Shown piece by piece: positions 1 to 64,000 of a DNA stretch of 64,000 nucleotides (position 1 is the first letter of the stretch; each line of letters starts with the position of its first letter). The stretch comes from Candidatus Nomurabacteria bacterium (lineage in GTDB: Bacteria; Patescibacteriota; Saccharimonadia; Saccharimonadales; HK-STAS-PATE-42). A program made the translations under genes and the position numbers. Where the stretch lies: assembly GCA_023898665.1 (NCBI GenBank), contig CP060233.1:82801-146800 (forward strand). The letters are read 5' to 3'. Under the pieces are notes generated by a model. That model saw only the letters and a program-made list of their open reading frames with translations, had not been told where the DNA came from and made no database searches.

Positions 1-291
1 ATGCTCGTGTGGGTGGTGATGATGGAACCAGCTTAAGAACCTCTCTAATAGAAAGAAAAGTATAATACCGATTAGTGCAAAAGTTAACCCTTGTTCGTAT
101 AAGCCTTGCTCACCTGCTTCTTTTAAAAGGTCTAGGAAGGCTGCTGCGAGAAAAGTCCCTGCAGCAAAAGGTGCTCCATATTTTGCAATAGATTCAGCTC
201 TTGAGCGCTTACTAAGCAGAAGCACTCCCCCCGCAAGTGAAAATATACTGCCTATGGTTGAAAAAAGTAAGACTTGATATATGCTAGTCAT
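1..291 (-). CDS. ZIP-family divalent metal (zinc) transporter, N-terminal part; the gene runs off the window edge
   Basis: My own minus-strand translation from the ATG at 289-291 gives MTSIYQVLLFSTIGSIFSLAGGVLLL...FAAGTFLAAAFLDLLKEAGE...LERFLSWFHHHHPHEH. It shows hydrophobic helices followed by a His-rich loop, as in ZupT/ZIP proteins. It is missing from the ORF track because it is open at the edge. Confidence 0.55.
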   Translation of the reverse strand, partial: MTSIYQVLLFSTIGSIFSLAGGVLLLSKRSRAESIAKYGAPFAAGTFLAAAFLDLLKEAGEQGLYEQGLTFALIGIILFFLLERFLSWFHHHHPHEH

Positions 292-308
292 TTTTCTTTT
301 TGTATTAT

Positions 309-746
309 TTATTGATTTATTAACCTGCGTAGTTCTTGTAGCTCAGAGAAAATGTTATTAGACTTATCTTTTGGAGCCGGTAAATCTTTTATTATTAATA
401 CTTTTTCTCCATTTGCCGCTAGATTGAAATTCTCTTTTAGTGCTTTTTCTTGATACTCTTTTGAGGAATAATAGTTTTTTTGAAGAGCAAGATTCTTATT
501 GGCTTCTTCAAGTAATTGGGCTTTATTTTGTAGTGTCTCTAGTTTTGTTTGGAGTTTTTGATTATGCCTAATTGCCACTCCAGTATTCCAGACGAAATAA
601 ATACTAAAGAATATAACAATATAATTTATCCAATTACTTCGAGATGTAGCCTTCTTAAGCTTGGCTTTAAACTCAGATGAGTCAGTATCTTTTATACTCG
701 ATACGGTGGGAAAAGAGTCTAAACTAAGATTTTTAGTGAACTTCAT
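309..746 (-). CDS. FtsB/DivIC-like septum formation initiator (membrane-anchored coiled-coil protein)
   Basis: 145 aa. A single TM helix (WINYIVIFFSIYFVW) is followed by a heptad coiled coil (KLQTKLETLQNKAQLLEEANKNLALQ). The call rests on architecture only. Confidence 0.5.
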   Translation of the reverse strand: MKFTKNLSLDSFPTVSSIKDTDSSEFKAKLKKATSRSNWINYIVIFFSIYFVWNTGVAIRHNQKLQTKLETLQNKAQLLEEANKNLALQKNYYSSKEYQEKALKENFNLAANGEKVLIIKDLPAPKDKSNNIFSELQELRRLINQ

Positions 747-852
747 TTTTTTGATTTTTATTTTTAGTAGATCTTCAATTTGATTATAACATGACTATCA
801 AACTGTTAAAGCGCATTTGTTTAAAACTAAGGTATAAGGTATAACTTGAGCC

Positions 853-1572
853 ATGAATCAAAGTAATGGCGAAAAAGAAATTTTGAGAATTTATAACGAA
901 CTTGACAAGTTCTTTAGAACTTCTATTGGGCAAGATGAAGTGATTGATCATGCGGCAGTTTTACAAAGAATTTCTAGGATTAATCCCGAGGTTAACAGAT
1001 ATACTTATGAGCTTAGGTCTTTTTCTAAATTAAGGAACATGCTGGTCCATGATAGTAATGGGGCTAATCAAATGCCCTTGATTGAGCCCACAGAGTTTGC
1101 AGTTAAGAGATACCAAGAGCTTGCCGATTTGATTATGAAGCCAAAAAGAGCTCTTAATATTGCTGTTCGAGCAAGCCATGTTTTTACAGTGAAATTAAGT
1201 GATCACGCTACTAAAGTTATGGCCGAAATGAATAGAAAGACTTTTACCCATGCTCCAGTTATTCAAGATGGGAAGATGATCGGCGTGTTCAGTGAGAATA
1301 CTGTCTTTGCATATTTAGTGAAAGAGAAACAAAGCTTAATTGATGAACAAACTACAATTGGAGATTTTAAGGATTTTATTGGCTTTAATGATCATCCTAG
1401 CGAAAAGTTTGTTTTTGTATCATCAAACTCAACTGCAATGGAAATTCGCGAGATGTTCAGTGAGGCTGTTAAGAATGGAGTTAGGATCGGGATGATTTTT
1501 GTAACAGCAAATGGTAAGCCAAAAGAGAGTTTACTCGGAGTGATTACTGCCTGGGATTTAGCTAAGGCTTAA
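853..1572 (+). CDS. HEPN-like (Rx4H) domain fused to a CBS-pair domain protein
   Basis: 239 aa. The N-terminal helical region carries LRNMLVH, an R-x4-H motif typical of HEPN domains. The C-terminal half looks like tandem CBS motifs (HAPVIQDGKMIGVFSENTVFAYL ... GMIFVTANGKPKESLLGVITAWDL). Confidence 0.55.
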   Translation: MNQSNGEKEILRIYNELDKFFRTSIGQDEVIDHAAVLQRISRINPEVNRYTYELRSFSKLRNMLVHDSNGANQMPLIEPTEFAVKRYQELADLIMKPKRALNIAVRASHVFTVKLSDHATKVMAEMNRKTFTHAPVIQDGKMIGVFSENTVFAYLVKEKQSLIDEQTTIGDFKDFIGFNDHPSEKFVFVSSNSTAMEIREMFSEAVKNGVRIGMIFVTANGKPKESLLGVITAWDLAKA

Positions 1573-3394: not shown

Positions 3395-4159
3395 ATGAAA
3401 AATGATGATGTTATTATGCAGGTTAAAAACCTGACAAAAATTTACGACAAAAAGAAGGTAGTTAACGGAATTGATTTTGAAGTTAAGAGGGGCGAGATTT
3501 TTGGGATCTTAGGTCCAAACGGAGCTGGAAAGACTACAACTCTTGAGATGCTAGAAGCTCTTAGACAAATTGATGGCGGCGAGGCACTACTTGATGGAGT
3601 TAATGTGGCGAAAGATCCTCAAAAGATTAAAGCCTTAATCGGAGTGCAGCCTCAAACTCCAGCATTTGCCGAGAAACTTAAGCTTACAGAAATTATTGAC
3701 ATGTTTGCTGCAGCTTATGGAGAGAAAGTAAATGCTAAAGAATTCTTAAGAGATGTTGATTTAGAAGAAAAAGCCAGTGCTTACTCTGAGAATTTATCCG
3801 GAGGACAGAGACAAAGGTTAAGCATTGCGGCAGCGTTAGTACATGGACCAAAGGTCTTCTTTTTAGATGAGCCTACTACAGGGCTTGACCCTCAGGCTAG
3901 AAGAAATCTTTGGGGATTAATTGAGGATGTCAGAAAAAAAGGTGTAACTGTCATTATGACAACTCATTATATGGACGAGGCTGAACTACTTTGTGACCGA
4001 ATTGCCATTATGGATAACGGAAAAATAGTTGCTCTAGATACACCAAAGAATTTGATTAAGAATCTACTAAAAAAAGGATTTAAGAAGGAACAAACTGTTG
4101 AGCAGGCTAATTTAGAAGATGTCTTTATAGACTTAACCGGGAAGGATTTAAGGGATTGA
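3395..4159 (+). CDS. ABC transporter ATP-binding protein (ABC-2/DrrA-like)
   Basis: Walker A GPNGAGKTT, ABC signature LSGGQRQRL and Walker B FFLDEPTTGLD. A permease gene follows 4 nt downstream. Confidence 0.9.
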   Translation: MKNDDVIMQVKNLTKIYDKKKVVNGIDFEVKRGEIFGILGPNGAGKTTTLEMLEALRQIDGGEALLDGVNVAKDPQKIKALIGVQPQTPAFAEKLKLTEIIDMFAAAYGEKVNAKEFLRDVDLEEKASAYSENLSGGQRQRLSIAAALVHGPKVFFLDEPTTGLDPQARRNLWGLIEDVRKKGVTVIMTTHYMDEAELLCDRIAIMDNGKIVALDTPKNLIKNLLKKGFKKEQTVEQANLEDVFIDLTGKDLRD

Positions 4160-4163: not shown

Positions 4164-5276
4164 ATGATTAAAAAAGAATTATTTACAATCTGGGTTTTTG
4201 CAAAGTTAGAAACTTTTAGAACATTTAGAGATAAAGTTGCTCTGTTTTTTACTTTTGTCTTCCCTTTAATCTTCTTGTTTATTTTTGGGGGAATTTTTGG
4301 AGGTAATAACTCCGTTAAGTTTAAGGTGGCAGTTTTGAATGAATCTAAGAGTGATTTTTCGCAAGGTTTTGTTAAGCAACTAACAGAAGATGAAACTTTT
4401 GATATTGATAAAGAATCTACTAGCCTAGATCTTGCTAAAGCTAAGATGGATCGAGGGCAATTAGACGCCACTATAGTTCTACCCCAAAACTTTGGTGAAA
4501 AATCAGGAAACAATGCTTACCCAAGTGGTGAGGCTCAAGTTATTTATAACCAAAATAATGAGCAGGCTGCCACAACCCTCACTTCTGTTTTAGGTGGAGC
4601 ATTTGAAAAGGTGAATGCTGGCTTTGTTAAGTCGGAGACTCCCTTCAGCGTAAAAGCTATATCTACCGCAAAGGAAGGTCAGCGAAGATTTGACTATACT
4701 TTTGCTGGTCTTGTGGGATTCTCTATCCTGGGTTTAGGTATTTTTGGGCCGACTACAGTATTCCCACAAATGAAGCAAAAAGGAATTTTAAAAAGACTTC
4801 ACACTACTACACTTAAGGTTAGACAGTACTTTATTGCGAATGCTCTTTCATCTTCAATTATAGGAATAGTCTCTGTTGCAATGATGTTTGTCGCAGCAAG
4901 AATATTCTTTGATCTCAATATGAATGGGGACTATTTAAGCTTAATGGCAATTGTTGTTTTGGGGACTATCACCTTGTTCGGAATTGGTCTCGCGATTGGT
5001 GGCTGGGCAAAAAACGAGAATCAAGCAGCGCCACTTGCTCAGATAGTCACATTCCCGATGATGTTCTTAAGTGGGGTCTTCTTCCCAAGGTTTGCAATGC
5101 CTGAGATATTACAGAGAGTTTCCTCATTCTTCCCTCTTACTCCAGTAGTGGACGGCGTAAGATTAATTGTTACTGAAGGAAGAACTATTTTTGACCTTGG
5201 CCCACAGGTAGGGTTGCTAGCAGCATGGATAGTAATAATCTATACCATCGCGTTTAGAGCGTTTAGGTGGGAATAG
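4164..5276 (+). CDS. ABC-2 type transporter permease
   Basis: 370 aa. An N-terminal TM helix and a large extracytoplasmic loop are followed by about 5 C-terminal TM helices. It is translationally coupled to the ATPase gene. Confidence 0.8.
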   Translation: MIKKELFTIWVFAKLETFRTFRDKVALFFTFVFPLIFLFIFGGIFGGNNSVKFKVAVLNESKSDFSQGFVKQLTEDETFDIDKESTSLDLAKAKMDRGQLDATIVLPQNFGEKSGNNAYPSGEAQVIYNQNNEQAATTLTSVLGGAFEKVNAGFVKSETPFSVKAISTAKEGQRRFDYTFAGLVGFSILGLGIFGPTTVFPQMKQKGILKRLHTTTLKVRQYFIANALSSSIIGIVSVAMMFVAARIFFDLNMNGDYLSLMAIVVLGTITLFGIGLAIGGWAKNENQAAPLAQIVTFPMMFLSGVFFPRFAMPEILQRVSSFFPLTPVVDGVRLIVTEGRTIFDLGPQVGLLAAWIVIIYTIAFRAFRWE

Positions 5277-5295: not shown

Positions 5296-7539
5296 CTAAT
5301 TGATAGTTTGGTTTACTAATTTGTACTCATCGACAAAGTGCTTATCAAATCTATTAGACTTAACCAGTTTGTAGCGAGGATCCTTTTTTATTTTAAACTC
5401 AGGGTCTTTCTCCCAGTGTAGGTGGTAAACGGTACTAGCAAAGACGTCGTCTGTCGAGCTGACTCTGCTGGTACTAAATCTCAAAGGAGCATAACCACCG
5501 TACGGACCAAGCTCTTCTTTTGAGTAAAAACGTAGGTCACAATCTTGGTAGTAATAAGAAGAATCGATGTAAGCAAATGGATCTTCTGCTACTATAGTTG
5601 CGCTAGAACAGTCTCCAATGCTTTCTCGAATAATTTTTGAGTTTGGTTTGTTTAAGCTCTGGAAGTTGTAATTTCCTGTTTTGCTCAAATTAGTCACTCC
5701 GGAGATTAACAAACCCAGTGATAAGAATGTCAGAATTATTGAGCTTAAGTGCTTACCATTGCGCCAGGCGGAATCAAGAGTTATACCAATAAGTGCATAG
5801 CCAAAGATAATAAAGTGTGCTAAGTATCTCTCCATAAAATATGGCTTTAGTGGAGGTATAGAAATAACTGCAAAGAATAAAATTGGAACCAGAAGAATTG
5901 ATAAAAATAAGTTAAGACCGTTCTTTTCTTTTTTTAAAGCTTTAGAATAGTTATGAGAAATTAGTTTCACTAAAATAATAAAGAAAGTTAGCAGCAACAA
6001 ACTGAGAACGACTGATATTTGCCATTCTGGCTCGTAACTTATGACAAAGCTTAAGATTCTAGTTAACTCTTTAAATGTAACTGGAGAGGTTATACTTGGA
6101 AGAGCCGAATGCTGGAATTGCCCGATAAGTGTAGGGACGTATGGAGCAAAAAGTAAGCCCGCAACTCCAAATGCAATTACGAATTTTTGCTTTAGCAACG
6201 AAGGTATTAAAGAGACTTTTGTTTTGGAGTTCTTTACATCTCTAATGTATGAAGAGACTAAATAAAGTCCATGAGCAAGCCAAACAACTATACTCATATA
6301 AAGTGTATAGAGACCTAGAACTACTAGTGCTGAATATAGCAACCAGTGCTTAAGTTTATCTGATTCTTTTGCTTTTACTAAAACATATGTAGCGAGTATG
6401 CATATGAGCATGACCATTGAGTACATACGGATCTCAAAACTATAGCGCATTAAGAATGGGGAGATAATTAGGAATGGTAGTGAAATAACTGCCGATGAAG
6501 GTCTAAAGACTTTTTTAATTAACACAAACATAGCACTTAAGCTTAGGGCTGCAAAAACTGCGCTTAGAGATCTTAATGCCAATTCGCTGTAGCCGAGTAT
6601 AGTCGCCCACCCCTTTAGAATTAGGTAATAAAGTGGAGGATGGGCATCGACTGCTGTTAAACTTAGGAGATCTGAGACTGGCCTTTTAGCGAGTGTAATT
6701 GAATATCCTTCATCAAACCAAATACTCTGCTTTAAACCAATGTGCATAGAGAGCAAAAATACACCAATCATCGAAAACATCAAAATTGCTTTATAGTGTC
6801 TGTTAGCAAATCGGCCCCATGATTCTACTCTAACTAAGATTACATCAGCCAAGGTTTTGAACCCGGCCCCCATCAAGCCGTCCCCCCTCAAGCCCTCTTC
6901 CCGCTCTTCTTGCCAATCAGAAATCTCTTGTTGAGTGATTTTTAATTTATTTTCTTTTGCTAACTGGAGCATCTCTATATCGAACCCCCAGCCGTTGAGG
7001 CGCTGCCTCGTAAAGACTTTTCTTGCGGCATCTTTTTTAAAACCTTTGTAACCGCACTGAGTATCTCTTATTCTTGGGAATAGCAGAACCCTTGTTATTA
7101 AATTACTCCCTATAGAGAAAAGTGTTCTTAGTTTACCAGGATGTATTTTGCTAAGTCTTCGGACTCCAACGACTACATCACTTTCGCCTCTCAGGCTTTG
7201 AACTGTCTTGGTGATATGATGGAGCGGTGTAGCAAGATCTGCATCCATGAATATCTGGACATCACCTTGGGCATTGTCAAAACCGATTCTTACGCTTAAG
7301 CCCTTACCTCTTTTATGACCTGGATCAATAACTTTAAGTTTTTCGAATTTAGAAGAAAGTTTTCTAGCAAGTACTGCAGTATCATCGGTACCCGATGCAA
7401 TCACTATTACTTCCGTTACCCCTAAAACTTTTCTTTTTTTATACAGGTAATTAGCGAGCTTTTGGAGAGTGGACTCAATAACCACAGACTCATTGTAGGC
7501 TGGGATAATGATACTGGTATCGATCTTGGGCATTGTCAC
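5296..7539 (-). CDS. Fusion protein: GT2 polyprenyl-phosphate glycosyltransferase domain plus a multi-pass GT39/ArnT-like (PMT-type) glycosyltransferase domain
   Basis: 747 aa. The N-terminal ~230 aa have GT2 hallmarks (IIIPAYNES, DADLATP, QCGYKGF). The remainder is about 11 TM helices with a soluble C-terminal domain, as in dolichyl/undecaprenyl-phosphate-sugar-dependent transferases. Confidence 0.75.
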   Translation of the reverse strand: MTMPKIDTSIIIPAYNESVVIESTLQKLANYLYKKRKVLGVTEVIVIASGTDDTAVLARKLSSKFEKLKVIDPGHKRGKGLSVRIGFDNAQGDVQIFMDADLATPLHHITKTVQSLRGESDVVVGVRRLSKIHPGKLRTLFSIGSNLITRVLLFPRIRDTQCGYKGFKKDAARKVFTRQRLNGWGFDIEMLQLAKENKLKITQQEISDWQEEREEGLRGDGLMGAGFKTLADVILVRVESWGRFANRHYKAILMFSMIGVFLLSMHIGLKQSIWFDEGYSITLAKRPVSDLLSLTAVDAHPPLYYLILKGWATILGYSELALRSLSAVFAALSLSAMFVLIKKVFRPSSAVISLPFLIISPFLMRYSFEIRMYSMVMLICILATYVLVKAKESDKLKHWLLYSALVVLGLYTLYMSIVVWLAHGLYLVSSYIRDVKNSKTKVSLIPSLLKQKFVIAFGVAGLLFAPYVPTLIGQFQHSALPSITSPVTFKELTRILSFVISYEPEWQISVVLSLLLLTFFIILVKLISHNYSKALKKEKNGLNLFLSILLVPILFFAVISIPPLKPYFMERYLAHFIIFGYALIGITLDSAWRNGKHLSSIILTFLSLGLLISGVTNLSKTGNYNFQSLNKPNSKIIRESIGDCSSATIVAEDPFAYIDSSYYYQDCDLRFYSKEELGPYGGYAPLRFSTSRVSSTDDVFASTVYHLHWEKDPEFKIKKDPRYKLVKSNRFDKHFVDEYKLVNQTIN

Positions 7540-8654: not shown

Positions 8655-8728
8655 ATTAAGTTTAATTATAACTCAATTACCTCTGTTTTTTGAAGTTTAG
8701 TAGGCTAAACTATTGTAGAATTAGATAT

Positions 8729-51149: not shown

Positions 51150-51150
51150 T

Positions 51151-51978: not shown

Positions 51979-52008
51979 AGTATCTTTTCAGTTAAAGATT
52001 ATAGCAAG

Positions 52009-54512: not shown

Positions 54513-55472
54513 TTAGGCGAAACCATACCAATTCTGAGCTCGTCTTTGGTTAGGCTCTTTAACTGCTGTGCGTTGCTCTTCAAACCTGGCCATCCTTGCC
54601 TCCATTGATCCGGCATTTTGCTGTATCGCTGCGAGCACTCTTGCATCTCTCTCTTCTTGTGTACCAATGACTGTGCGAGGGTTTGCAGCGCTTCTAAGTG
54701 CTGTATTAATCCCCCTTGTAACGAAGTTTCTACCGCCATATCTACTACCTGCCCTGGCATCAGTTCGTCGTTCTGCAACACGGCCAGCTTCCCATTTTTT
54801 GGTTTTGTCGATGAGTCCTTTGTCCTTATTGTTGACTATGCCTGCAACTTTACCTATTGCTCCGCCCGCTAGACTAAAGGCCTTACCTATCAGGAAGTAC
54901 GGAGCTATTAGTATGGCGACTGCCCCGAGTTGATAAAGCATTCCCGCTGCGCCACTATCTCCTCCTTGACTAATTATTCCTGATGCAACACGACTAAGAG
55001 CAAAAAATGCCATGACAAACGGGTACATTAGCATTAACTTGCTGAACCAGTCCCACCACTTCTTAAACCAACTTTCTGTTTGAGGTAAAATCCCTGCCGC
55101 TATGGCTAGGGGGGCCACTATTATTAAGCCGATTAAGGCAACCCTCCGAATCATAACTACTGCGAAGGCCAGTAATATGCCGGTGGCGCCCGCGACTGCT
55201 ACCCCTAAGATTGGTATAAGACCAAGCCCTACTGAGCCGATTGCGAGGCCTAGGGCAACTGCTAAGACGGCACTAAAAGTGTTGCCAGTACCGCTAAAAT
55301 CAATTGTTGTGAGTGTGCCTGAGAATGGAGCAAGAATAAGACCATACGCAGATTCACCCAGCGCGTTAACGGCTCTAATAAAAATATCCATTAGTGCCCA
55401 AGAAAGATTTATGCCCACTAAAGCCATAACAGCCCTTGGTATGATCTTTTTTATGTCGTATGCGCTAAACAT
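54513..55472 (-). CDS. VirB6/TrbL-like polytopic T4SS membrane protein (reading frame apparently continues after frame breaks)
   Basis: 319 aa with about 6 Gly/Ala-rich TM helices, next to PrgI-like and pilin genes. The C-terminal region continues in other frames down to ~54176. The functional call rests on topology and context. Confidence 0.55.
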   Translation of the reverse strand: MFSAYDIKKIIPRAVMALVGINLSWALMDIFIRAVNALGESAYGLILAPFSGTLTTIDFSGTGNTFSAVLAVALGLAIGSVGLGLIPILGVAVAGATGILLAFAVVMIRRVALIGLIIVAPLAIAAGILPQTESWFKKWWDWFSKLMLMYPFVMAFFALSRVASGIISQGGDSGAAGMLYQLGAVAILIAPYFLIGKAFSLAGGAIGKVAGIVNNKDKGLIDKTKKWEAGRVAERRTDARAGSRYGGRNFVTRGINTALRSAANPRTVIGTQEERDARVLAAIQQNAGSMEARMARFEEQRTAVKEPNQRRAQNWYGFA

Positions 55473-55483
55473 CTTTCTTTATT

Positions 55484-56920
55484 TTATCCTTTTATAGCTT
55501 TAACAAGTAATGCAATTAAGAATCCAATTATTAAGAGTATTGTTCCTAGACTTCTGAAAATATTCCAACTATCCTTTATAGATTGAGCGCCTTCGGTGCT
55601 TGTACCGATTTCGTCAACCTTAAACTTCAGAGCAGTTTCTATAGTTCCTTGGAGTACTTCCGTAAAACTTATTATTTTGTCTATCACTGGACAGACAAAC
55701 CAGCCTAAGAAATCATCAGAGCTAAGACATGCGTCAGCTTCTGAGGCACTACTGCTAGAAGATGAGGTGCCCGTGTTGTTTGTAAGGTCGTCTGCTATGC
55801 CTTCGGTTGCGATACCAAGTTGGCTTAACATTGACTTGAGGCTGGTCCCAAAGGCCGGGTCAGAAAGTAGGCAAGTTTTTAGTGTGTTAGCTTGTTCGCT
55901 TGTTGCTTCAATAGTACTAGAGCCTGCTCCAGTGTAAACGAGGTTGTCTTTAATTTCTCCTGAAATTAACCATTCTGCAATAGAATCTGTGCCTATTACT
56001 GGTAGGGACGCTGCGGCAGTACAGAATTTAATGATGTCTGGATTCGAATTTAAGAGTGAAAGCATGGGTCCTCTAACAGCACTATCTACAACTTCACTTA
56101 AATTAGAGGCACGTATATTTGCATATAGGTTTTGAGGGTTGTTGCGGAGTATACTTGTGGTGACGTTGTTTTCAGACATGAAGGTTATAAGGTCAAGATT
56201 GCCCGATTGAGCACGAGACGCGAGACGCGAACAGGTTACTTTTTCGATGTCTCCAATGCCCACAGGGATGTTTGAACCATCGTCCTTTCCGTTCACATAC
56301 TTATAGTCTTTGGAGAGTCCTGATATATCGCTTGTGCCGTCTGTTGACTCTTTAAAACATTCCGCAAATGCTATCGAATATCTTATTTTTTCAATATCAC
56401 CAGTGTCGGCTGCCCCAACAAAAAGGCTGGCAAGAAGTTTCTCAGAGGCTTTTATTCTTTCGGTTTCGTCTTTACGGTTATATTGCGAACCTACCTTGTC
56501 ATAAAAAAGATCTATAAAATCTGAGGTACTCCCGAAAGCCTCAGAAATTCTGCTTTTTCCTGGTACTACTAACTCCTCACAGGCCACAACTCCATCGTCT
56601 CCACTGACTCCTCCAGAGTATTCGAGGTCATGCCCTACGGTTAATCTCCCTTTATTGCCTTCACCTGTTCTAAAGATGTCCATTCTTGCATACTCTGAAG
56701 AGTCTAAGCTCTCTTTAAGTGCTGGACTACCCCCATCGTCTGTGGCTAGTGTGCATCTTGCAATTGCGTTAACCCAGCGAGCGGTAAGATATTGTGCCGG
56801 TATAGGGGAGTTGGTTGGTGTGGAGGCATCTGCTTGACCACTACTAACAGTTACTAATGCAGTAAGTAGTGGCAGTAAAAACAATAAACACAAGATCCTG
56901 TTTAATCTTTTTTTGATCAT
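55484..56920 (-). CDS. Secreted/extracytoplasmic protein with a C-terminal TM anchor (478 aa), T4SS-locus associated
   Basis: Signal peptide (LCLLFLLPLLTALVTVSSGQA), several Cys residues, a Ser-run linker and a terminal TM helix (LGTILLIIGFLIALLV). It sits 11 nt upstream of the VirB6-like gene. Confidence 0.62.
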   Translation of the reverse strand: MIKKRLNRILCLLFLLPLLTALVTVSSGQADASTPTNSPIPAQYLTARWVNAIARCTLATDDGGSPALKESLDSSEYARMDIFRTGEGNKGRLTVGHDLEYSGGVSGDDGVVACEELVVPGKSRISEAFGSTSDFIDLFYDKVGSQYNRKDETERIKASEKLLASLFVGAADTGDIEKIRYSIAFAECFKESTDGTSDISGLSKDYKYVNGKDDGSNIPVGIGDIEKVTCSRLASRAQSGNLDLITFMSENNVTTSILRNNPQNLYANIRASNLSEVVDSAVRGPMLSLLNSNPDIIKFCTAAASLPVIGTDSIAEWLISGEIKDNLVYTGAGSSTIEATSEQANTLKTCLLSDPAFGTSLKSMLSQLGIATEGIADDLTNNTGTSSSSSSASEADACLSSDDFLGWFVCPVIDKIISFTEVLQGTIETALKFKVDEIGTSTEGAQSIKDSWNIFRSLGTILLIIGFLIALLVKAIKG

Positions 56921-56922
56921 AC

Positions 56923-57459
56923 TTATTTTTCTTCAATTTCCCCCACTAAAAACTTTGAGGTTTCAGTAATATAGTCTAAGGATTCTTTATTCGTAGCATT
57001 GATTGTTATGAGCCATATATAGTTTTGTTTTATTCCATAAATTTTAGACATTGTTCCATTTATTGAGTCAAGTAGAAGCCTTGTTCCGTCTGAAAGCACT
57101 ACTACCTTAAGGTCGTCTTTAGGCAAATTACTCAGCTCCAGGAGACCCTTTAACTTGCTTATGTCGTCGCTTGAGCTATCTTTTTTTATAAAGCGTGTAA
57201 TTTCTATTGAGCTATTTTTTAAGTTTTCACTATCTCCAACATATGTTGAGGTAATGGACTCTGGTGTAGATGAGGTAACCTCAAAGTCTTTAGGTATGCT
57301 ATATGAGAAATATCGTCCATCTAAAGAATATAATGTATTGTCAATATTCTTATCTTTGCTGTTACCTTGAAGTAGCATACCTACTATAAGAATAGCGCTC
57401 AAAACAGCGATTCCACCAACTATGTAGATTTTATTTCGTTGATTTTTTTGAGGGGTCAT
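56923..57459 (-). CDS. Membrane-anchored hypothetical protein (178 aa), first gene of the minus-strand T4SS-like operon
   Basis: An N-terminal TM helix (IYIVGGIAVLSAILIVGMLL) and a soluble domain. Its stop is 2 nt from the next gene's start. Confidence 0.58.
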   Translation of the reverse strand: MTPQKNQRNKIYIVGGIAVLSAILIVGMLLQGNSKDKNIDNTLYSLDGRYFSYSIPKDFEVTSSTPESITSTYVGDSENLKNSSIEITRFIKKDSSSDDISKLKGLLELSNLPKDDLKVVVLSDGTRLLLDSINGTMSKIYGIKQNYIWLITINATNKESLDYITETSKFLVGEIEEK

Positions 57460-57526
57460 TTTTGATTTTACTTATATAATAATGTTAACAACAAAACTGC
57501 TTAATTTCCAGCTTATATAAGTGGTG

Positions 57527-57532
57527 TATAAT
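57527..57532 (+). promoter_or_regulatory. Candidate -10 box (TATAAT) for the pilin operon
   Basis: TATAAT ends 7 nt before the ATG at 57540 and no Shine-Dalgarno sequence is visible, which suggests a leaderless or very short leader transcript. Confidence 0.3.
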
Positions 57533-57539
57533 TTTTGAT

Positions 57540-57809
57540 ATGATCGCTGGATTAAGTTTAATTGCAGTTACTGAAACGAGGGAGCTCTCTGAGATATATG
57601 GTTATCTTGCTGACTTTACTCAGCTTTTGACTCTTTTAATTGGTGCGGTCTTAATTATAAGTACTATTGTCGCTGGAATTCAGTACACTACCGCAGGCGG
57701 TTCAAGTGAGAAGGTAGAAAAAGCTAAAGCGAGATTGGCAAGTAATGTTATGGTTTTGGCTATATATCTGTTTTCTGCGGCGGTATTAAATTGGATATTA
57801 CCAGGTTAA
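57540..57809 (+). CDS. T4SS pilin-like protein, paralogue 1 (VirB2/TrbC-like two-helix protein)
   Basis: C-terminal module LLIGAVLIISTIVAGIQYTTAGGSSEKVEKAKARLASNVMVLAIYLF aligns with the five downstream paralogues. Confidence 0.6.
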   Translation: MIAGLSLIAVTETRELSEIYGYLADFTQLLTLLIGAVLIISTIVAGIQYTTAGGSSEKVEKAKARLASNVMVLAIYLFSAAVLNWILPG

Positions 57810-57814
57810 GCTTT

Positions 57815-58312
57815 ATGAGATTTTATAAAAGAATAATTTTAGTTTTTATTTTTACTGCACTTTCACTAAGCTTAATTGGTGCAAAAAATGCTAGTGCACT
57901 GAGTGTCGGTGAATCTTGTGATGTTGAGGACAACTCGCTGTTGGGGGTGCCAACTTGGTACAAATATCTCCCTGCTGAAGGATCTTTACAGATTGTGCCA
58001 CTGAAGGCGGGGGGCTATGAAGAGAAAGTTGTTTGTCAGCCTACTTTAAAAACAATCGATGATGAGAAGATCCCAATAAATAATATTTTGCTAATTGTTG
58101 CTGCTATAACTGAGATATTGATTAGGATCGCTGGTCTTGCGGCATTTATTTACTTAATATATGGGGGGTTTATGTATCTAACGTCTGGTGGGAACTCTGA
58201 AAATATTAGCAAAGCAGGTACCACTCTTTTGAATGCGGCTATTGGTCTAGGTATTGCAATCTCAGCAACTGCATTTATTAGTTTTTTCGCAGGAAGATTA
58301 GCCCAAAAGTAA
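57815..58312 (+). CDS. T4SS pilin-like protein, paralogue 2
   Basis: Signal peptide, a variable region with 2 Cys, then IYLIYGGFMYLTSGGNSENISKAGTTLLNAAIGLGIAI. ATG 57815 is preferred over the track start at 57791. Confidence 0.7.
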   Translation: MRFYKRIILVFIFTALSLSLIGAKNASALSVGESCDVEDNSLLGVPTWYKYLPAEGSLQIVPLKAGGYEEKVVCQPTLKTIDDEKIPINNILLIVAAITEILIRIAGLAAFIYLIYGGFMYLTSGGNSENISKAGTTLLNAAIGLGIAISATAFISFFAGRLAQK

Positions 58313-58360
58313 ACTCCATTGCTTATCCCCTAATGAGTTTTTTTGTGTTAAACTAGGGTT

Positions 58361-58654
58361 ATGTTTGCTACCCTATTATTTAAGCTTTCTAATATATACG
58401 AAGATGCAGGCCTACCTAATGCGAATACTAGTAATTTGGTAACTAATGTTAAGAATCTAGTCTTTGTGGCAGCTGCTGTAGTTGCTCTCTACTTCTTAGT
58501 AATTGCAGGGATGAACTATGTGACCTCATCTGGTAATGCAGAAAAAGCCAAGAAAGCGACACAAACTATAATTTTTGCATCTTTAGGTCTATTTCTAATA
58601 TTAATGAGCTATACGATTATCACCTGGGTATTTAAGATAGGTACAGCAAAATAA
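58361..58654 (+). CDS. T4SS pilin-like protein, paralogue 3
   Basis: LVIAGMNYVTSSGNAEKAKKATQTIIFASLGLFLIL module. Confidence 0.65.
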   Translation: MFATLLFKLSNIYEDAGLPNANTSNLVTNVKNLVFVAAAVVALYFLVIAGMNYVTSSGNAEKAKKATQTIIFASLGLFLILMSYTIITWVFKIGTAK

Positions 58655-58664
58655 AATAAAAAAT

Positions 58665-59144
58665 ATGAAGAGGATAGCAAGATTATTACGAGCAGGGTTA
58701 ATGCTGAGCTATTTATTTATAGTAATGTTTTTCGGATTTGGTGCGCAGTCATCTGCTCTAGTAGATTGTGATCCTAACCCCGCTGATCCTCTAAAATGTT
58801 TCTGTGAGAACATCAAGGATGATCTACCAGAGGCAACTGATGAACAAAAGTCTATCTGTGACCTGAAAGATGTTGAGCAGAGTCCAACATCTGACGAGAC
58901 TTTGCTGGGTAAAAACGGGATTATTAAGAAGGTTCTTAACCTTCTCTCATGGCTAACAGGTTTGTTGGCAGCAGTCTATCTTATTATTGGAGGAGCTAAG
59001 ATTATTACAAGCGGTGGTAACAGTGATTCTGTCACGTCCGGTAGAAAGATGATTATTTATGCGCTTGTGGGTATTGTAGTTGTAATTTCTAGCAATTTGA
59101 TTATAAACTTTGTAATAGGATTAGTTAATAATGCAAGTAAATAA
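58665..59144 (+). CDS. T4SS pilin-like protein, paralogue 4
   Basis: Signal peptide, a 4-Cys variable head (CDPNPADPLKCFC...C), then YLIIGGAKIITSGGNSDSVTSGRKMIIYALVGIVVV. Confidence 0.72.
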   Translation: MKRIARLLRAGLMLSYLFIVMFFGFGAQSSALVDCDPNPADPLKCFCENIKDDLPEATDEQKSICDLKDVEQSPTSDETLLGKNGIIKKVLNLLSWLTGLLAAVYLIIGGAKIITSGGNSDSVTSGRKMIIYALVGIVVVISSNLIINFVIGLVNNASK

Positions 59145-59612
59145 ATGAAGAGATTAAAAAGTTTAGCGTTAAGCTTAATAATTATATTTTCTACGTTAGT
59201 AGTAGTACCAGTTGTTAGTGCGAGTAATGATGCTGGTAATCAGGCTTGTGCAGGACTAGAGAGCTTGGGAGTTGATTGTAATGCGGATGGCAGAACGGCA
59301 GAGGAGATTGCAAAGCAGCCGATAAAATCTCTTATAAATACTTTTTCTATTATTCTTGGTGCAGTTGCTGTGATAATGATAATTTATGGTGGATTTAAAT
59401 TTGTAACGAGCGGTGGAGATGCCGATAGTACTAAGGCCGCTCGAAATACTATTATTTATGCGGCGATTGGATTGGTGGTCGTGCTGATCGCGCAAAGTAT
59501 TGTCTACTTTGTATTTAGACAAGCTAAAACATTGCAGAACATTCCGGAGTCTACAGAAGACCCTGCGGCTGTTTTGATTATTGACAATAGGAACCCTGGT
59601 ACTATAAGCTAA
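59145..59612 (+). CDS. T4SS pilin-like protein, paralogue 5
   Basis: Signal peptide, a 2-Cys head, then MIIYGGFKFVTSGGDADSTKAARNTIIYAAIGLVVVLI. Its start abuts the stop of paralogue 4. Confidence 0.75.
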   Translation: MKRLKSLALSLIIIFSTLVVVPVVSASNDAGNQACAGLESLGVDCNADGRTAEEIAKQPIKSLINTFSIILGAVAVIMIIYGGFKFVTSGGDADSTKAARNTIIYAAIGLVVVLIAQSIVYFVFRQAKTLQNIPESTEDPAAVLIIDNRNPGTIS

Positions 59613-59673
59613 AGATTATAAAGGTGGTACTCTGCTAAACTACCCTAATTTAAAGAAGGTAATAATAAATACT

Positions 59674-60117
59674 ATGAAATTAATTAAAAAATTATTAAGT
59701 TTAACTGTAGCTTTTGCTTTTGTGCTAAGTTCAGTCGCTTTAGTACCAGCGCCTTCGAGTGCAGAATCGTTTAACGACGGTGTTTGTAGAGGTGTTAATA
59801 CGGTATTGAACGATACTGGTGGAACAATCAGCACAGATACTAATTGCGCTGAGGGAGACGGAAACGACCAGCTTGCACAACTTGTTAATAATCTAATTAA
59901 CCTTTTCTCAATTATCGTAGGTGCAGTATCTGTAATTATGATAATTTATGGTGGATTCAAGTACATAACGAGCGGAGGGAGTGATGATGCAACTAAGTCT
60001 GCGAAGAACACAATTCTTTATGCATTAGTCGGTTTAATTATTGTGTTGATTTCTCAGACTATCGTTAAGTTTGTATTTAGTAAGGCACTAAGCTTAAACA
60101 ATGGAGGATCAGAATAA
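59674..60117 (+). CDS. T4SS pilin-like protein, paralogue 6
   Basis: Signal peptide, a 2-Cys head, then MIIYGGFKYITSGGSDDATKSAKNTILYALVGLIIVLI. Confidence 0.75.
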   Translation: MKLIKKLLSLTVAFAFVLSSVALVPAPSSAESFNDGVCRGVNTVLNDTGGTISTDTNCAEGDGNDQLAQLVNNLINLFSIIVGAVSVIMIIYGGFKYITSGGSDDATKSAKNTILYALVGLIIVLISQTIVKFVFSKALSLNNGGSE

Positions 60118-60605: not shown

Positions 60606-62015
60606 TTAATATTTCTTGCTGTACCCTAGTTTAGTAAGTTCTTCTTTTACTATTGCGTATTCATCCCAGGGGATCTTTACTCCGGCTATGATGCTACTTG
60701 GGTCTGTTCCTTTTCCGGTTATTAAAACAATGTCATTCTTTTTTGCTAAGCTCAAGGCTTTGGAGATTCCTTCTTTTCTGTCTTGGATCTGATAAATTCC
60801 TTTTAGTTCTGGCCTGACTTTTTTGCAGCCTTTTACGATGTCATTAATAATATCTTGAGGGTCATCGTCGTATACGTCGTCGTTACTAATGACTACTGAG
60901 TCACAATATCTAGCGGCTATCTCTCCCATGATAGGGCGCTTTTTAATGTCTCTGCCCCCTCCTTGTCCGCAGATAAGACTAATTATCTTTCCTCCTTTAG
61001 GGAGTGATTCTTTAGCCCACTCTACTAATTGTTGTAAGCCGCTTTCCTCGTGGGCATAGTCGATTACTACCGTAAAGGGCTGTCCCTGCTTTATTAGGTT
61101 CATTCTCCCAGGTACGCCACCATAACTTTCTAATCTTTTTGAAATAGTTTTTGGGTTTAGTCCAATAATCTGTGCGGTTGCTATAGCTGCTGTGGCATTT
61201 GATATGTTTATTTTGCCGGGTATATTAAGCTTAAATCTAGTGTTTTTAAGTTTAAATGTGCTGTCTTCAATACCAGACTCTATATGGGCAGGCTTAAAGT
61301 CACTTTCTTCTTTTACCGAATAGGAGAATTTTTGATCTGCTTTGAATTTTGTATATTCTCCATAGAATTCGGAATCTTTATTGGCAAGAATTGTCTTTGG
61401 GAATTTACTTCCATTTATTTTCTTTTTCTTTAACCTGTGGAAGATAGATAATAGTCTCTTGTTGTGTTTGTGTAATAGTTCTAGGCTGTTTTTATGAACG
61501 GCTAAGATCTCGTTCGTGACATTTGTAAAAATAATGATGTCGAAGTTGATGCCGATATGGCGCCAGTTTTGCTGAGCTTCACTCGGGACTTCTAGTATGG
61601 CATATTTGCATCCACTTTTTTTCATTTGTGAAAGTAACTTTTGGGTGTGCCAACGTCCAGGCATAGTTTTGTGCCAATGGTTCTTTACTCTCCTGTTACC
61701 TATTTGGATGTCCGCCGTACCGATTAAGCCGGCAGGTTTTTTTTTGTCATTTAGTATTCCCCATAAGATGTTTGCTGTGGTGGTCTTCCCTTTTGAGCCT
61801 ACAATACCAATTACCAGCAATGATCTGCTTGGATTTTTGTATATAACTTGAGCAACTCTGGCCTCTATGTAGTGCTGTAGCTGAAAGACCCAACTTGGCA
61901 GGAGCCTTCTTAGCAGGTTAAGCGTCATGTGTACTATTCTTTTTTTGGGCGACATAATTAAGCTTAATTCTAGCAGATTAACTATTATTAAGTTTTTGTT
62001 AAGACTTATGCACAT
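60606..62015 (-). CDS. murE: UDP-N-acetylmuramoyl-L-alanyl-D-glutamate--diamino acid ligase (MurE-like Mur ligase)
   Basis: [67 protein letters not shown] and ITGKGTD follow the MurE motif order. The true start is probably internal (MSPKK at 61955). Confidence 0.8.
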
Positions 62016-62945: not shown

Positions 62946-63032
62946 GGGCGAGTGGCGGAATTGGTATACGCGACGGACTTAAAATCCGTTGAGAGCAATC
63001 TCGTGAGGGTTCAAGTCCCTCCTCGCCCACCA
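62946..63032 (+). tRNA. tRNA-Leu (anticodon UAA)
   Basis: GGGCGAG TG GCGGAATTGGTATACGCG ACGGA CTTAAAA TCCGT + variable arm + GAGGG TTCAAGT CCCTC CTCGCCC A CCA. Confidence 0.88.
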
Positions 63033-63044
63033 CTTTGGTTTGCT

Positions 63045-63410
63045 ATGTTAAAGATTGCACGCACTTCATTATGTGTAAATGCTGAGGACCTCAAGGGTCT
63101 TTTTTCGTCTAAAAATATAAGGCACGCGGCTGTAGGTCCTGGCTATGGAACCCTCGTGAGAGCTAAGATGGTCCAGGACTATTTAACAGATGGGGCTTTT
63201 AGTGCCGTATACTTTGATTGTCGGGTCCCTTGTGGCGATACTCCCACAGCTACATGGACCGAGGCTTTTGCTTGTATCTCGAAGCTTGGCGAAGAGACTG
63301 GGCTGTATGTCCCAGCTGTTATAGACCCCAGTGTACCTCGTTATATAAACGCAAATCCTGAACTTGCTGTAATAGAATTTCTCGAATTGGTGTCAGGACA
63401 ATCTGTTTAG
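63045..63410 (+). CDS. Hypothetical protein (121 aa)
   Basis: The track ORF 62952..63410 overlaps tRNA-Leu, so the internal ATG at 63045 (MLKIARTSL) is the plausible start. GC-richer than the flanks, several Cys, no family recognised. Confidence 0.4.
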   Translation: MLKIARTSLCVNAEDLKGLFSSKNIRHAAVGPGYGTLVRAKMVQDYLTDGAFSAVYFDCRVPCGDTPTATWTEAFACISKLGEETGLYVPAVIDPSVPRYINANPELAVIEFLELVSGQSV

Positions 63411-63419
63411 ATTATATCC

Positions 63420-64000
63420 TTACATCTTAGACGGGATCTCTATGCCGAGAATTCCTAATGATGACTCAAGGATACTATAGGTAAACTTAAGGAGCCAAAC
63501 TCGGGCTTCTTTTTCTTCTGGAGCGGAATTCATAATATTAACTTCTTCGTAGTATCTATTTAGCTCTTTGGCGAGTTCAAACGCATAGGTTGCTAGATGA
63601 TGGGGCTCGTACTTTTCGGCAGAAGTTCTTACTAGTTCTGGATATTTACTAAGCTTAAGTAAAAGTTCTGATTCTTCTTCGAAATTGTAATCTGATTTAA
63701 GTTCTTTTTGGTTGTCTGCGTCTTCAGCCAATTTTTGTAGGATGGATTTAATTCTTACTCCTGCATATTGAACGAATGGTCCAGAAAAACCTTGGAGGCT
63801 GAACATACGATCCCAATCGAATAAAATATTTGTTTTTCTGTCTTGGGCGAAGTCGTTAAACTTAATTGCTCCGAGAGCAATCTTGTGAATGTCTTCGAAT
63901 TTAAGATCCCTGTCCTCGACCGTCTTTGTGGCATATTCTAGCGCGCGATCAATCAGGTCTCTAATATGCATGGCGCCTTTACGGGAACTCATCTTTTCTC
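63420..64000 (-). CDS. argS: Arginine--tRNA ligase, C-terminal (DALR anticodon-binding) part; 5' end outside the window
   Basis: ALGAIKFNDFAQDRKTNILFDWDRMFSLQGFSGPFVQYAGVRIKSIL and the terminal ...IPSKM are typical of the ArgRS C-terminus. The frame is open to the window edge. Confidence 0.85.
   Translation of the reverse strand, partial: EKMSSRKGAMHIRDLIDRALEYATKTVEDRDLKFEDIHKIALGAIKFNDFAQDRKTNILFDWDRMFSLQGFSGPFVQYAGVRIKSILQKLAEDADNQKELKSDYNFEEESELLLKLSKYPELVRTSAEKYEPHHLATYAFELAKELNRYYEEVNIMNSAPEEKEARVWLLKFTYSILESSLGILGIEIPSKM

Follow-up and report, generated by a model that had tools for sequence, protein, structure and literature searches.

The DNA examined here is a 64-kb window (the whole stretch of 64,000 nucleotides that was analysed, from contig CP060233.1) of a 692-kb genome of the candidate phyla radiation (CPR), which bears the NCBI label 'Candidatus Nomurabacteria', whose PolA is identical to USN97587.1, and whose nearest named relatives are the Saccharibacteria, at ~45-50% PolA identity. 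The window has a GC content of 39.6%, and its gene map, based on simple open reading frame (ORF) calls and a tRNA map, includes polA, grpE, a radA-like gene, dnaN, dnaA, and a type IV secretion gene cluster that adjoins dnaA and dnaN and is richer in GC. A short word, 5'-TTAAGYTTAR-3', with the core TAAGCTTA, recurs in genes and in the spacers between them, and the window genome and most of its relatives carry it at tens of times the frequency that chance or codon usage would give. TTAAGYTTAR is read here as a signature word at the level of DNA that is actively maintained and belongs to the class of the uptake signal sequences (USS) of Pasteurellaceae, the DNA uptake sequences (DUS) of Neisseriaceae, and the highly iterated palindrome HIP1 of cyanobacteria.

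Abundance and anatomy of the word

The window contains 96 copies of the HindIII hexamer AAGCTT (20.6 expected by base composition), 41 of the 8-mer TAAGCTTA (1.9 expected; observed/expected 22), and 15 of the 10-mer TTAAGCTTAA (0.17 expected), and AAGCTT, TAAGCTT, and TAAGCTTA are its top over-represented 6-, 7-, and 8-mers, respectively. An earlier note on this DNA had tallied the three nested palindromes by eye at roughly 85-90, about 40, and at least 14 copies, which the exact counts bear out, and all five of the 10-mer coordinates that it quoted are correct. A second palindrome, CTTAAG, is enriched too (74 vs. 20.9 expected), but it is not an independent element: it mostly overlaps the AARYTT words of the TTAAGYTTAR family (40 of 74 copies), and a mild preference for G after the 10-mer also contributes to its excess.

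The enrichment outlasts each null model applied to it. None of 100 dinucleotide shuffles of the window reached the real 41 copies of TAAGCTTA (3.43 +/- 2.16 in the shuffles). Synonymous-codon shuffling within the coding sequences (CDS) of the window gave 33.0 +/- 5.3 AAGCTT against 80 real copies, 4.7-4.9 +/- 2.0-2.1 TAAGCTTA against 35, 1.2 +/- 1.0 TTAAGCTTAA against 11, and 7.3 +/- 2.4 sites of the TTAAGYTTAR family against 51, and shuffling the codon order of the same genes gave similar numbers. In the intergenic DNA (8.7 kb), a first-order Markov null predicted 5.7 +/- 2.3 AAGCTT and 0.34 +/- 0.58 family sites, compared with 14 and 12 real ones. Codon, dipeptide, or dinucleotide bias as the full cause is ruled out by these four nulls, which leave a 7- to 60-fold excess. 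Maximal-order Markov z-scores are modest or negative (AAGCTT, 6.1; TAAGCTTA, 5.9; the 10-mer TTAAGCTTAA, -2.7) because every sub-word is itself enriched. The spacer copies listed in the earlier note are all intergenic on the ORF and tRNA map, and its argument that dipeptide or codon bias is insufficient holds against both the synonymous-codon shuffle and the persistence of the excess in intergenic DNA.

The enriched unit was defined by tabulating all words of the form YTAARYTTAR in the window and in 103 kb from five word-bearing relatives:

TTAAGCTTAG: 106 copies in the relatives, 20 in the window
TTAAGCTTAA, the perfect palindrome: 65 copies in the relatives, 15 in the window
TTAAGTTTAG: 60 copies in the relatives, 11 in the window
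TTAAGTTTAA: 25 copies in the relatives, 17 in the window
all YTAARYTTAR classes without a perfect half: 15 copies in the relatives, 6 in the window

One perfect TTAAG half and a relaxed second half are common to all the abundant classes and together make up the unit TTAAGYTTAR; in the relatives, 256 sites follow this rule vs. 15 without a perfect half, and it holds in intergenic DNA as well. The rule is asymmetric, with the palindromic 8-mer core present in 171 of the 256 sites and the perfect 10-mer in 65, about a quarter. Two changes in the same half are tolerated (TTAAGTTTAG, 60 copies), while one change in each half is rare (TTAAACTTAG, 5 copies; CTAAGCTTAG, 2 copies), and this contrast rules out a strict palindrome surrounded by a mutational halo. 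Positions 2-4 and 7-9 of the unit are strict, with transition variants at only 5-7 copies, and the variant seen most often has T for the central C on whichever strand reads the perfect half. A pyrimidine precedes TAAGCTTA in 95% of half-sites (T, 0.64-0.66; C, 0.27-0.31). The two flanks of the core are not independent of each other: the pairs T..A, C..A, and T..G are common and C..G (CTAAGCTTAG) is nearly missing, in genes and spacers alike (2 of 192 copies in the relatives, 0 of 41 in the window). No sequence conservation extends past the flanking Y/R position, and the information content of the unit is ~18 bits.

Two simpler descriptions fail on this anatomy. The earlier note had taken the unit to be the palindrome AAGCTT and its extensions; the enrichment that it described is real, while the unit is neither the hexamer nor a strict palindrome. 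The flanks of AAGCTT are strict within the word, and flankless AAGCTT is roughly 3-4-fold in excess in relatives both with and without the word (arithmetic from locus counts), which therefore reflects composition or codon habits of the clade and not the word. Short repeats of the repetitive extragenic palindromic (REP) type, miniature inverted-repeat transposable elements (MITE), and other mobile repeats, which are intergenic units of more than 20 nt, can be rejected from the lack of conservation past the Y/R flank and from the ~70-80% of copies that lie within genes.

Distribution among relatives and the thinned state of the window genome

Relatives at graded PolA distance were compared over ~14-23 kb around polA each, at one or two loci per relative. 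Base composition predicts 0.3-0.7 copies of TAAGCTTA per locus. The counts of TAAGCTTA, with PolA identity to the window, were as follows:

L051, PolA 96% identical: 40 in 22.7 kb
L056, PolA 83% identical: 1 in 14.3 kb
L053, PolA 79% identical: 38 in 22.7 kb
L057, PolA 79% identical: 37 in 22.7 kb
L058, PolA 76% identical: 38 in 15.6 kb
L059, PolA 72% identical: 3 in 19.6 kb
L054, PolA 64% identical: 39 in 22.7 kb

A second locus confirmed both states, with 20 copies in 20.8 kb of one word-bearing genome and 0 in 5.8 kb of the L056 genome. No copies of TAAGCTTA were found in distant Saccharibacteria, and no replacement word was found in the two relatives without TTAAGYTTAR (L056 and L059), which are similar in GC content and codon usage to the word-bearing ones; L059 retains TTAAGTTTA remnants. 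It follows from the locus counts and the second-locus results that the word was ancestral to the clade and has been lost two or more times.

In the five word-bearing relatives, TAAGCTTA occurs 192 times (observed/expected 66) and the TTAAGYTTAR family 256 times, or 2.4/kb. Within their CDS the word occurs 141 times, compared with 11.0 +/- 3.1 under synonymous shuffling, and in their intergenic DNA (12.8 kb) the family reaches 65 sites vs. 1.06 expected, or 5.1/kb. The enrichment is thus not confined to the window, and the view of the earlier note that the word is a signature of the resident genome extends from that genome to its clade. For 30-60% of copies, another word-bearing genome has the word at the aligned position, compared with 5-14% for control 8-mers, although nucleotide identity between the orthologues of these genomes is only 65-74%; genomes that lack the word keep it at 1 of 163 aligned positions. 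Positional conservation above that of the controls suggests that the word is actively maintained in the clade.

The window genome carries the word at ~40% of the density seen in the word-bearing relatives, with 63 family sites (0.98/kb), of which 12 are intergenic. Intergenic density is 1.4/kb vs. 5.1/kb in the relatives and CDS density 0.9/kb vs. 1.9/kb; the ratio of C-forms to T-forms is 35:28 vs. 171:85. Occupancy of permissive contexts is halved: X-Lys-Leu-Z contexts able to encode the core are filled at 61% in the five word-bearing relatives, at 29% in the window, and at 7% in the two relatives without the word. The window genome therefore looks like an intermediate, partly eroded state, and the greater fall of intergenic than of coding sites is what would be expected if maintenance had stopped and unconstrained copies were decaying first. 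Alternatively, a weaker but still active process may be at work in this genome.

Placement in genes, spacers, and the type IV secretion cluster

The 63 family sites of the window are given below with coordinates, strand, and setting; the perfect palindrome TTAAGCTTAA is unstranded.

4315..4324, +: TTAAGTTTAA, in CDS 4164-5276 (+)
4935..4944, unstranded: TTAAGCTTAA, in CDS 4164-5276 (+)
6537..6546, +: TTAAGCTTAG, in CDS 5296-7539 (-)
8656..8665, +: TTAAGTTTAA, intergenic
9060..9069, -: TTAAGTTTAG, in CDS 8690-9715 (+)
11985..11994, -: TTAAGTTTAA, intergenic
12490..12499, +: TTAAGCTTAG, in CDS 12072-13901 (-)
14451..14460, -: TTAAGTTTAA, intergenic
15044..15053, +: TTAAGCTTAG, in CDS 14476-15414 (-)
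15353..15362, +: TTAAGCTTAG, in CDS 14476-15414 (-)
15708..15717, +: TTAAGTTTAG, in CDS 15520-16383 (-)
15746..15755, +: TTAAGTTTAG, in CDS 15520-16383 (-)
15905..15914, -: TTAAGTTTAA, in CDS 15520-16383 (-)
16387..16396, +: TTAAGTTTAG, intergenic
17692..17701, -: TTAAGCTTAG, in polA, 17505-20168 (-)
18718..18727, +: TTAAGTTTAG, in polA
18835..18844, unstranded: TTAAGCTTAA, in polA; word at the same aligned position in 4 relatives
19384..19393, +: TTAAGTTTAA, in polA
20005..20014, +: TTAAGTTTAG, in polA
20175..20184, +: TTAAGTTTAA, intergenic, polA/yaaA divergent spacer
20197..20206, -: TTAAGCTTAG, intergenic, polA/yaaA divergent spacer
20328..20337, +: TTAAGCTTAG, in CDS 20213-20986 (+)
20391..20400, -: TTAAGCTTAG, in CDS 20213-20986 (+)
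20598..20607, +: TTAAGCTTAG, in CDS 20213-20986 (+)
22493..22502, unstranded: TTAAGCTTAA, intergenic, right after a -10-like TATAGT and 36 nt upstream of an amine-oxidase gene start
23333..23342, +: TTAAGCTTAG, in grpE, 23173-23667 (+)
23468..23477, unstranded: TTAAGCTTAA, in grpE
27931..27940, +: TTAAGCTTAG, in CDS 27084-29288 (-)
28646..28655, unstranded: TTAAGCTTAA, in CDS 27084-29288 (-)
29128..29137, unstranded: TTAAGCTTAA, in CDS 27084-29288 (-)
29820..29829, unstranded: TTAAGCTTAA, intergenic divergent spacer, after a -10-like TAAGAT on the - strand
30220..30229, +: TTAAGTTTAA, in CDS 29883-30569 (+)
30642..30651, -: TTAAGCTTAG, in CDS 30535-31764 (-)
31458..31467, +: TTAAGTTTAA, in CDS 30535-31764 (-)
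31710..31719, -: TTAAGCTTAG, in CDS 30535-31764 (-)
31805..31814, unstranded: TTAAGCTTAA, intergenic, in the middle of CACTTAAGCTTAAGTG, a perfect 16-bp palindrome (31802-31817)
34713..34722, +: TTAAGCTTAG, in the radA-like CDS 34513-35877 (-)
34829..34838, +: TTAAGCTTAG, in CDS 34513-35877 (-)
35708..35717, -: TTAAGTTTAA, in CDS 34513-35877 (-)
36734..36743, +: TTAAGCTTAG, intergenic, 33 nt upstream of a MIP-channel gene start
37409..37418, +: TTAAGTTTAG, in CDS 36776-37543 (+)
40695..40704, -: TTAAGTTTAG, in CDS 40692-42431 (+)
41598..41607, unstranded: TTAAGCTTAA, in CDS 40692-42431 (+)
42054..42063, -: TTAAGTTTAG, in CDS 40692-42431 (+)
42450..42459, unstranded: TTAAGCTTAA, in the 43-bp spacer of two convergent genes
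46185..46194, -: TTAAGCTTAG, in dnaN, 45353-46489 (-)
46191..46200, +: TTAAGTTTAA, in dnaN, overlapping the preceding site at a 6-nt offset
46348..46357, +: TTAAGTTTAA, in dnaN
48669..48678, +: TTAAGTTTAG, spacer upstream of dnaA
49909..49918, unstranded: TTAAGCTTAA, in CDS 49824-51149 (+)
50122..50131, unstranded: TTAAGCTTAA, in CDS 49824-51149 (+)
50592..50601, -: TTAAGTTTAG, in CDS 49824-51149 (+)
51731..51740, -: TTAAGTTTAA, in a PrgI-family gene, 51151-51978 (-)
57552..57561, +: TTAAGTTTAA, in CDS 57540-57809 (+)
57866..57875, -: TTAAGCTTAG, in a type IV secretion pilin gene, 57791-58312 (+)
59169..59178, unstranded: TTAAGCTTAA, Leu-Ser-Leu codons 9-11 of a type IV secretion pilin gene, 59145-59612 (+)
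59695..59704, +: TTAAGTTTAA, in a type IV secretion pilin gene, 59674-60117 (+)
60088..60097, -: TTAAGCTTAG, in the same pilin gene, 59674-60117 (+)
61225..61234, unstranded: TTAAGCTTAA, in a Mur ligase gene, 60606-62015 (-)
61246..61255, +: TTAAGTTTAA, in CDS 60606-62015 (-)
61958..61967, unstranded: TTAAGCTTAA, in CDS 60606-62015 (-)
63649..63658, -: TTAAGCTTAG, in CDS 63420-63998 (-)
63856..63865, -: TTAAGTTTAA, in CDS 63420-63998 (-)

Six further copies of the core TAAGCTTA have flanks outside the rule and are likewise unstranded:

3679..3686: flank TTAAGCTTAC
9685..9692: flank ATAAGCTTAA
18341..18348: flank ATAAGCTTAG
30610..30617: flank GTAAGCTTAG
31539..31546: flank TTAAGCTTAT
38685..38692: flank ATAAGCTTAA

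Two of the three coding phases are used, namely nnT-AAG-CTT-Ann (X-Lys-Leu-X) and YTA-AGC-TTA (Leu-Ser-Leu), while the third would place a stop codon in frame; for Lys-Leu, AAG-CTT is the codon pair preferred, at 40 of 165 in the window. Sites are 2-3 times as dense in intergenic as in coding DNA, and recurrent placements in spacers are right after -10-like TAnnnT hexamers, just before ribosome-binding sites, and on stop codons, with some copies between convergent genes or just past terminator-like hairpins. The word supplies the TAA stop codon of 13 of 105 genes in the relatives and of 0 of 65 in the window. In two cases, a single TAAGCTTA supplies the TAA stops of both of two convergent genes (L057, 19750-19757; L058, 12382-12389). 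Spacing is Poisson-like, with a coefficient of variation of ~1, which rules out regular spacing or clustering. Each site is itself dyad-symmetric, and no paired-site terminators were seen; in the relatives, only 2 of 187 gaps between neighbouring core copies are shorter than 30 bp. Relative to genes, 85 asymmetric sites lie on the template and 54 on the coding strand, a mild bias that is expected from which variants are synonymous; by chromosomal strand, the asymmetric sites divide 29 to 19 in the window and 82 to 109 in the relatives. Since synonymous positions, stop codons, and free spacer positions are all filled, in either orientation, the process that maintains the word reads double-stranded DNA and not protein or mRNA.

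Some promoter-proximal copies are conserved. The arrangement at the amine-oxidase promoter, with 22493..22502 after TATAGT, also occurs in L051, L053, and L057. The 16-bp palindrome CACTTAAGCTTAAGTG lies ~40 nt upstream of a conserved 409-amino-acid gene of unknown function between the flanking sequences TTTACTTA ... TAAGTAAA; L051 has the same arrangement (about 1380-1400), with related forms in L053 and L057, and it may be an operator built around the signature word. The 0.5-kb spacer 48265-48767, upstream of dnaA (46861-48264, -), has one family site (48669) and no AAGCTT, and is likely the replication origin.

The type IV secretion cluster is the one word-poor region singled out in the window:

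51979..60117, unstranded: type IV secretion gene cluster, with 5 family sites in 8.1 kb vs. 58 in the other 55.9 kb

From 51151 to 60117, the cluster encodes PrgI, TrbL/VirB6, two unknown proteins, and four or five tandem VirB2/TrbC-like pilin paralogues; a VirB4-like ATPase was recognised neither there nor in the cluster of a word-bearing relative (L228, 1614-10837). AAGCTT is absent from the 5-kb stretch 52735-57807, and the copy at 52729 is the only one between 51583 and 57808, as the earlier note had said of what it called a GC-rich island. The orthologous cluster of the relative is equally poor (4 sites in 8.3 kb vs. 16 in 12.5 kb) and also GC-richer, which suggests that the cluster is compositionally distinct across the clade and beyond the window genome alone. 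The GC-rich island of the earlier note is part of this type IV secretion locus, which is poor in the word in the relative too. The 'pilin' of that note is likewise a type IV secretion (VirB2/TrbC-like) and not a type IV pilus pilin, and its Leu-Ser-Leu codons, placed there at 59171-59179, lie at 59169-59177.

Within the cluster, 52175-54592 is a strain-specific 2.4-kb replacement. On the flanks that they cover (48746-52174 and 54593-57680), five further assemblies from this species are 98.9-100% identical to the window, and wherever their contigs reach into the stretch between, the DNA is different; the longest of them, L223, has 2.3 kb there that encode the C-terminal half of a 570-amino-acid TrbL_3 protein and an intact 536-amino-acid protein. 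The window version is non-alignable, with a GC content of 0.49, a T-rich + strand, and ORFs of at most 93 amino acids without Pfam hits, and it shows a faint, frame-hopping similarity (23-32%) to the 536-amino-acid protein. The replacement is a broken and highly divergent allele of some variable type IV secretion module, or else a region that varies between strains and that the assembly resolved poorly. Recoding of a stop codon does not account for the ORF-poor 52-54.5 kb, as no single stop codon explains the stretch and the short ORFs have no Pfam hits.

Possible origin and role of the word

USS and DUS are 9-12-nt words that occur at ~1/kb on both strands. TTAAGYTTAR resembles them as a specific word of this length that reaches or exceeds about 1/kb, occurs on both strands, and lacks the strong strand skew shown by Chi and by FtsK-orienting polar sequences (KOPS). 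Like them, it fits particular reading frames, where it becomes a common tripeptide, it is denser in spacers, its tolerated one-base variants are enriched, and it is scarce in a compositionally distinct gene cluster. On the other hand, the core of TTAAGYTTAR is palindromic, which USS and DUS are not; these often occur as inverted pairs that form terminators. No loss as fast as that of TTAAGYTTAR among close relatives is known to have been described for USS or DUS, which are far slower in this respect, and their uptake role is shown by experiment, with the ComP pilin known as the DUS receptor, while that of TTAAGYTTAR is a proposal. A Chi- or KOPS-type skewed word is rejected, as a quarter of the sites are palindromic and the rest are only 60:40 to the gene strand, which coding constraints can explain. 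The host group is also naturally competent, as in the USS and DUS systems: Saccharibacteria have been shown to possess natural competence that depends on ComEC, and conservation of com genes extends across CPR (PMC10633639).

HIP1 (GCGATCGC) occurs at 300-2,700/Mb in cyanobacteria, with an observed/expected ratio of 55-228 (PMC4390886), and the abundance of TAAGCTTA is comparable (640/Mb in the window and ~1,860/Mb in the relatives; observed/expected 22-66). Both have an 8-mer palindromic core with palindrome-preserving extensions, lie in genes and spacers, are positionally conserved and patchy with losses, and have position-biased one-base variants (PMC4390886, PMC5861425). TTAAGYTTAR differs from HIP1 in being AT-rich and in a CPR lineage, where HIP1 is GC-rich and cyanobacterial, in its asymmetric rule with one strict half, and in that no cognate methyltransferase was found in the ~250 kb sampled; sequence and phylum thus exclude it from HIP1 proper. 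A periodicity of 10-90 kb is reported for HIP1, for which 64 kb is too short a comparison, and TTAAGYTTAR spacing is random at short range. The choice of HIP1, USS, and DUS as the comparison class in the earlier note was right. The core also contains the HindIII-type target AAGCTT, whose first A is methylated by M.HindIII, M.EcoVIII, and M.LlaCI (PMC5974420). A HindIII-type restriction-modification target does not fit an 8-10-bp unit with strict flanks, and there are no restriction-modification genes in the window. Restriction targets are normally avoided in host genomes; here, the hexamer is enriched. In Campylobacter jejuni, CtsM methylation of RAATTY marks self-DNA for recognition in transformation. 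This site too is short, AT-rich, and palindromic and could serve as a tag of kin DNA, and a similar arrangement would reconcile the palindromic core of TTAAGYTTAR with an uptake role, but the RAATTY 6-mer is not markedly over-represented, and its mark is the methyl group and not site density.

The cause to which we tentatively lean, at somewhat short of an even chance, is natural transformation of kin DNA with a bias for sequence, which may be coupled to methylation. Under this proposal, the lineage would keep the 10-bp word written wherever sequence is free to vary, and natural transformation would prefer word-bearing kin DNA, at uptake or at acceptance. The preference might act through methylation, as proposed for HIP1, which boosts transformation in a way that depends on methylation and has now been proposed as an uptake sequence (bioRxiv 10.1101/2024.09.10.611283; 10.64898/2026.06.24.733823). 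Recombination would then spread word-bearing alleles until most permissive positions were filled, as in molecular drive of the USS/DUS type, with the system on in most relatives, lost in two, and partly eroded in the window genome. The anatomy of the word, its statistics, its spread in the clade, and the pattern of erosion are observed; the link to transformation, any part played by methylation, and the drive itself are what we infer in this scheme. That TTAAGYTTAR is specifically a DNA uptake or kin-recognition sequence of this CPR lineage, switched off in some sub-lineages, is conceivable and still rather doubtful. Its density, information content, asymmetric strict core, tolerated variants, random scatter, scarcity in a distinct gene cluster, and loss in sub-lineages all fit an uptake role.

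Several observations weigh against such a role. Known USS and DUS are non-palindromic, and the dyad symmetry of TTAAGYTTAR would suit a type II methyltransferase or a DNA-binding protein that acts as a dimer no less well. The C-to-T change at the central C of the perfect-half strand could just as well be the trace of a cytosine that is methylated and prone to deamination. Selection on single sites, and not drive, is another reading of the positional conservation, as Xu et al. argued for HIP1 (PMC5861425). No methyltransferase or restriction endonuclease, the AAGCTT-specific kind contemplated in the earlier note included, was found in the window (Pfam, PADLOC, NCBIfam) or in the loci of the relatives (motif regex), ~250 kb of clade DNA in all, and neither com genes nor a receptor were seen in the window or in ~190 kb of DNA from the relatives; in this respect, the window has only radA and the type IV secretion cluster. 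Each relative, moreover, was seen at only one or two loci.

Among the alternatives, a HIP-type element without an uptake role is unlikely but substantial. The word would be the target of a methyltransferase, orphan or part of a restriction-modification system, and would be created and kept by methyl-guided repair or mismatch correction, as in the model of Elhai for HIP1 (PMC4390886), with gain and loss of the enzyme turning it on and off. The palindromic TAAGCTTA contains both AAGCTT, the target of the beta-class N6-methyladenine enzymes named above, and AGCT; the patchy on/off pattern among close relatives mirrors that of HIP1 and its methyltransferases (PMC4390886); and the near-restriction of the central C-to-T change to the perfect-TTAAG strand (TTAAGTTTAG, 60 vs. 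TTAAACTTAG, 5) is what strand-specific deamination of 5-methylcytosine would give. The TTAAGTTTA remnants of L059, where the word is lost, also speak for this reading. Nevertheless, no methyltransferase-like ORF was found in the ~250 kb sampled, and a symmetric type II enzyme would impose neither the one-perfect-half rule nor the exclusion of CTAAGCTTAG. A repair drive acting on C/T alone cannot yield the enrichment of the whole family (256 vs. ~2 expected by a base-composition estimate, about 100-fold), and a Vsr-like drive confined to the central T/C is rejected, as its supposed precursor TAAGTTTA is itself 13-fold enriched and not depleted; the creative mechanism is hypothetical even for HIP1. 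The uptake and methylation readings may also be two sides of a single mechanism, with kin DNA marked by words that are methylated. It is improbable that the word is the binding site of an abundant dimeric chromosomal protein (nucleoid-associated, a global regulator, or chromosome-organising), kept by selection for chromosome structure or transcription. The partial dyad symmetry, the higher intergenic density, and the copies after -10-like hexamers, before ribosome-binding sites, and beside terminators, with some of the promoter copies conserved across species, speak for such a protein, as does positional conservation well above controls, a similar result having been read as a nucleoid function for HIP1 (PMC5861425). 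However, the filling of 61% of permissive synonymous contexts in genes goes far beyond the need of a regulator, spacing is random, two sister lineages dispense with the word and have adopted no replacement, and the non-additive half-site rule fits simple dimer binding poorly.

A role at the level of RNA or translation, through hidden -1-frame TAA stops on both strands, a preferred Lys-Leu codon pair, or self-complementary RNA contacts, is the weakest of these readings and highly improbable. In its favour, TAA stands in one frame on each strand of the word, a share of genes in the relatives end in the word, and AAG-CTT is preferred among Lys-Leu codon pairs. Yet the strongest enrichment is in untranslated spacers, both orientations to transcription are used, and close relatives with similar proteins and codon tables do without the word. 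That there is no special element at all, and that the word merely follows from the base composition, dinucleotide bias, and codon usage of a genome rich in AT, is refuted by the nulls. The modest maximal-order Markov z of ~6 and the excess of flankless AAGCTT in relatives with and without the word would suit it, but the excess outlasts all four nulls, and sister genomes of similar GC content and codon usage have no such word.

Few signature words reach such abundance, and specific DNA-handling machinery has come to light through each of the known ones (USS, DUS, Chi, HIP1). The present one is unusual in being AT-rich, in its 'one perfect half' rule, and in having near relatives that are fully on, half decayed, and fully off. 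To our knowledge, HIP1 is still not fully explained after 30 years, and another example, AT-rich and unrelated to it, from a minimal genome of 0.7 Mb, with close relatives that keep, are losing, or have lost the word, offers a comparative system, with few genes to compare, for what creates such words. If the transformation scheme is correct, the word would gate which environmental DNA is recombined, favouring that of kin over that of host or prey; genomes that are switched off would lose it within ~20% PolA divergence; and adding it to transforming DNA would improve genetic tools for these organisms. A word that tags kin DNA would also bear on how naturally competent CPR bacteria escape swamping by host DNA. 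For the clade itself, it is a practical marker for binning and contamination. We know of no USS/DUS-like uptake sequence described for ultra-small episymbiotic bacteria, and of none with dyad symmetry, and no report of TTAAGYTTAR, an uptake sequence, an iterated palindrome, or such a methylation motif in Saccharibacteria or Patescibacteria turned up in the searchable literature.

In a scan with three motifs, the matches listed, in 43 viral contigs and at least 120 metagenome contigs, showed only local tandem or cluster repeats, and there was no word-rich phage or genome contig among them. Dense satellite arrays of the AAATTTAAGCTTAAATTTAGGCTTA type, beside CCCTAA telomere-like repeats, were found in L160 (2300-3850) and also in L117, L123, L213, and L218; such arrays probably come from eukaryotic subtelomeres and have no relation to the bacterial word. 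The only restriction-like genes in any sampled locus lie in L054 (20574-22658), the word-bearing relative furthest from the window, ~8 kb from polA, and encode a zinc-ribbon protein, an Mrr_cat restriction-endonuclease-like protein (357 amino acids), and a DEAD/ResIII helicase, with no methyltransferase beside them. In the window, 8690-9715 encodes a 341-amino-acid protein without a Pfam family, which has a weak, partial PADLOC match to the AAA ATPase domain of LmuB (Lamassu; E = 5e-6) and orthologues of ~326-334 amino acids in all relatives.

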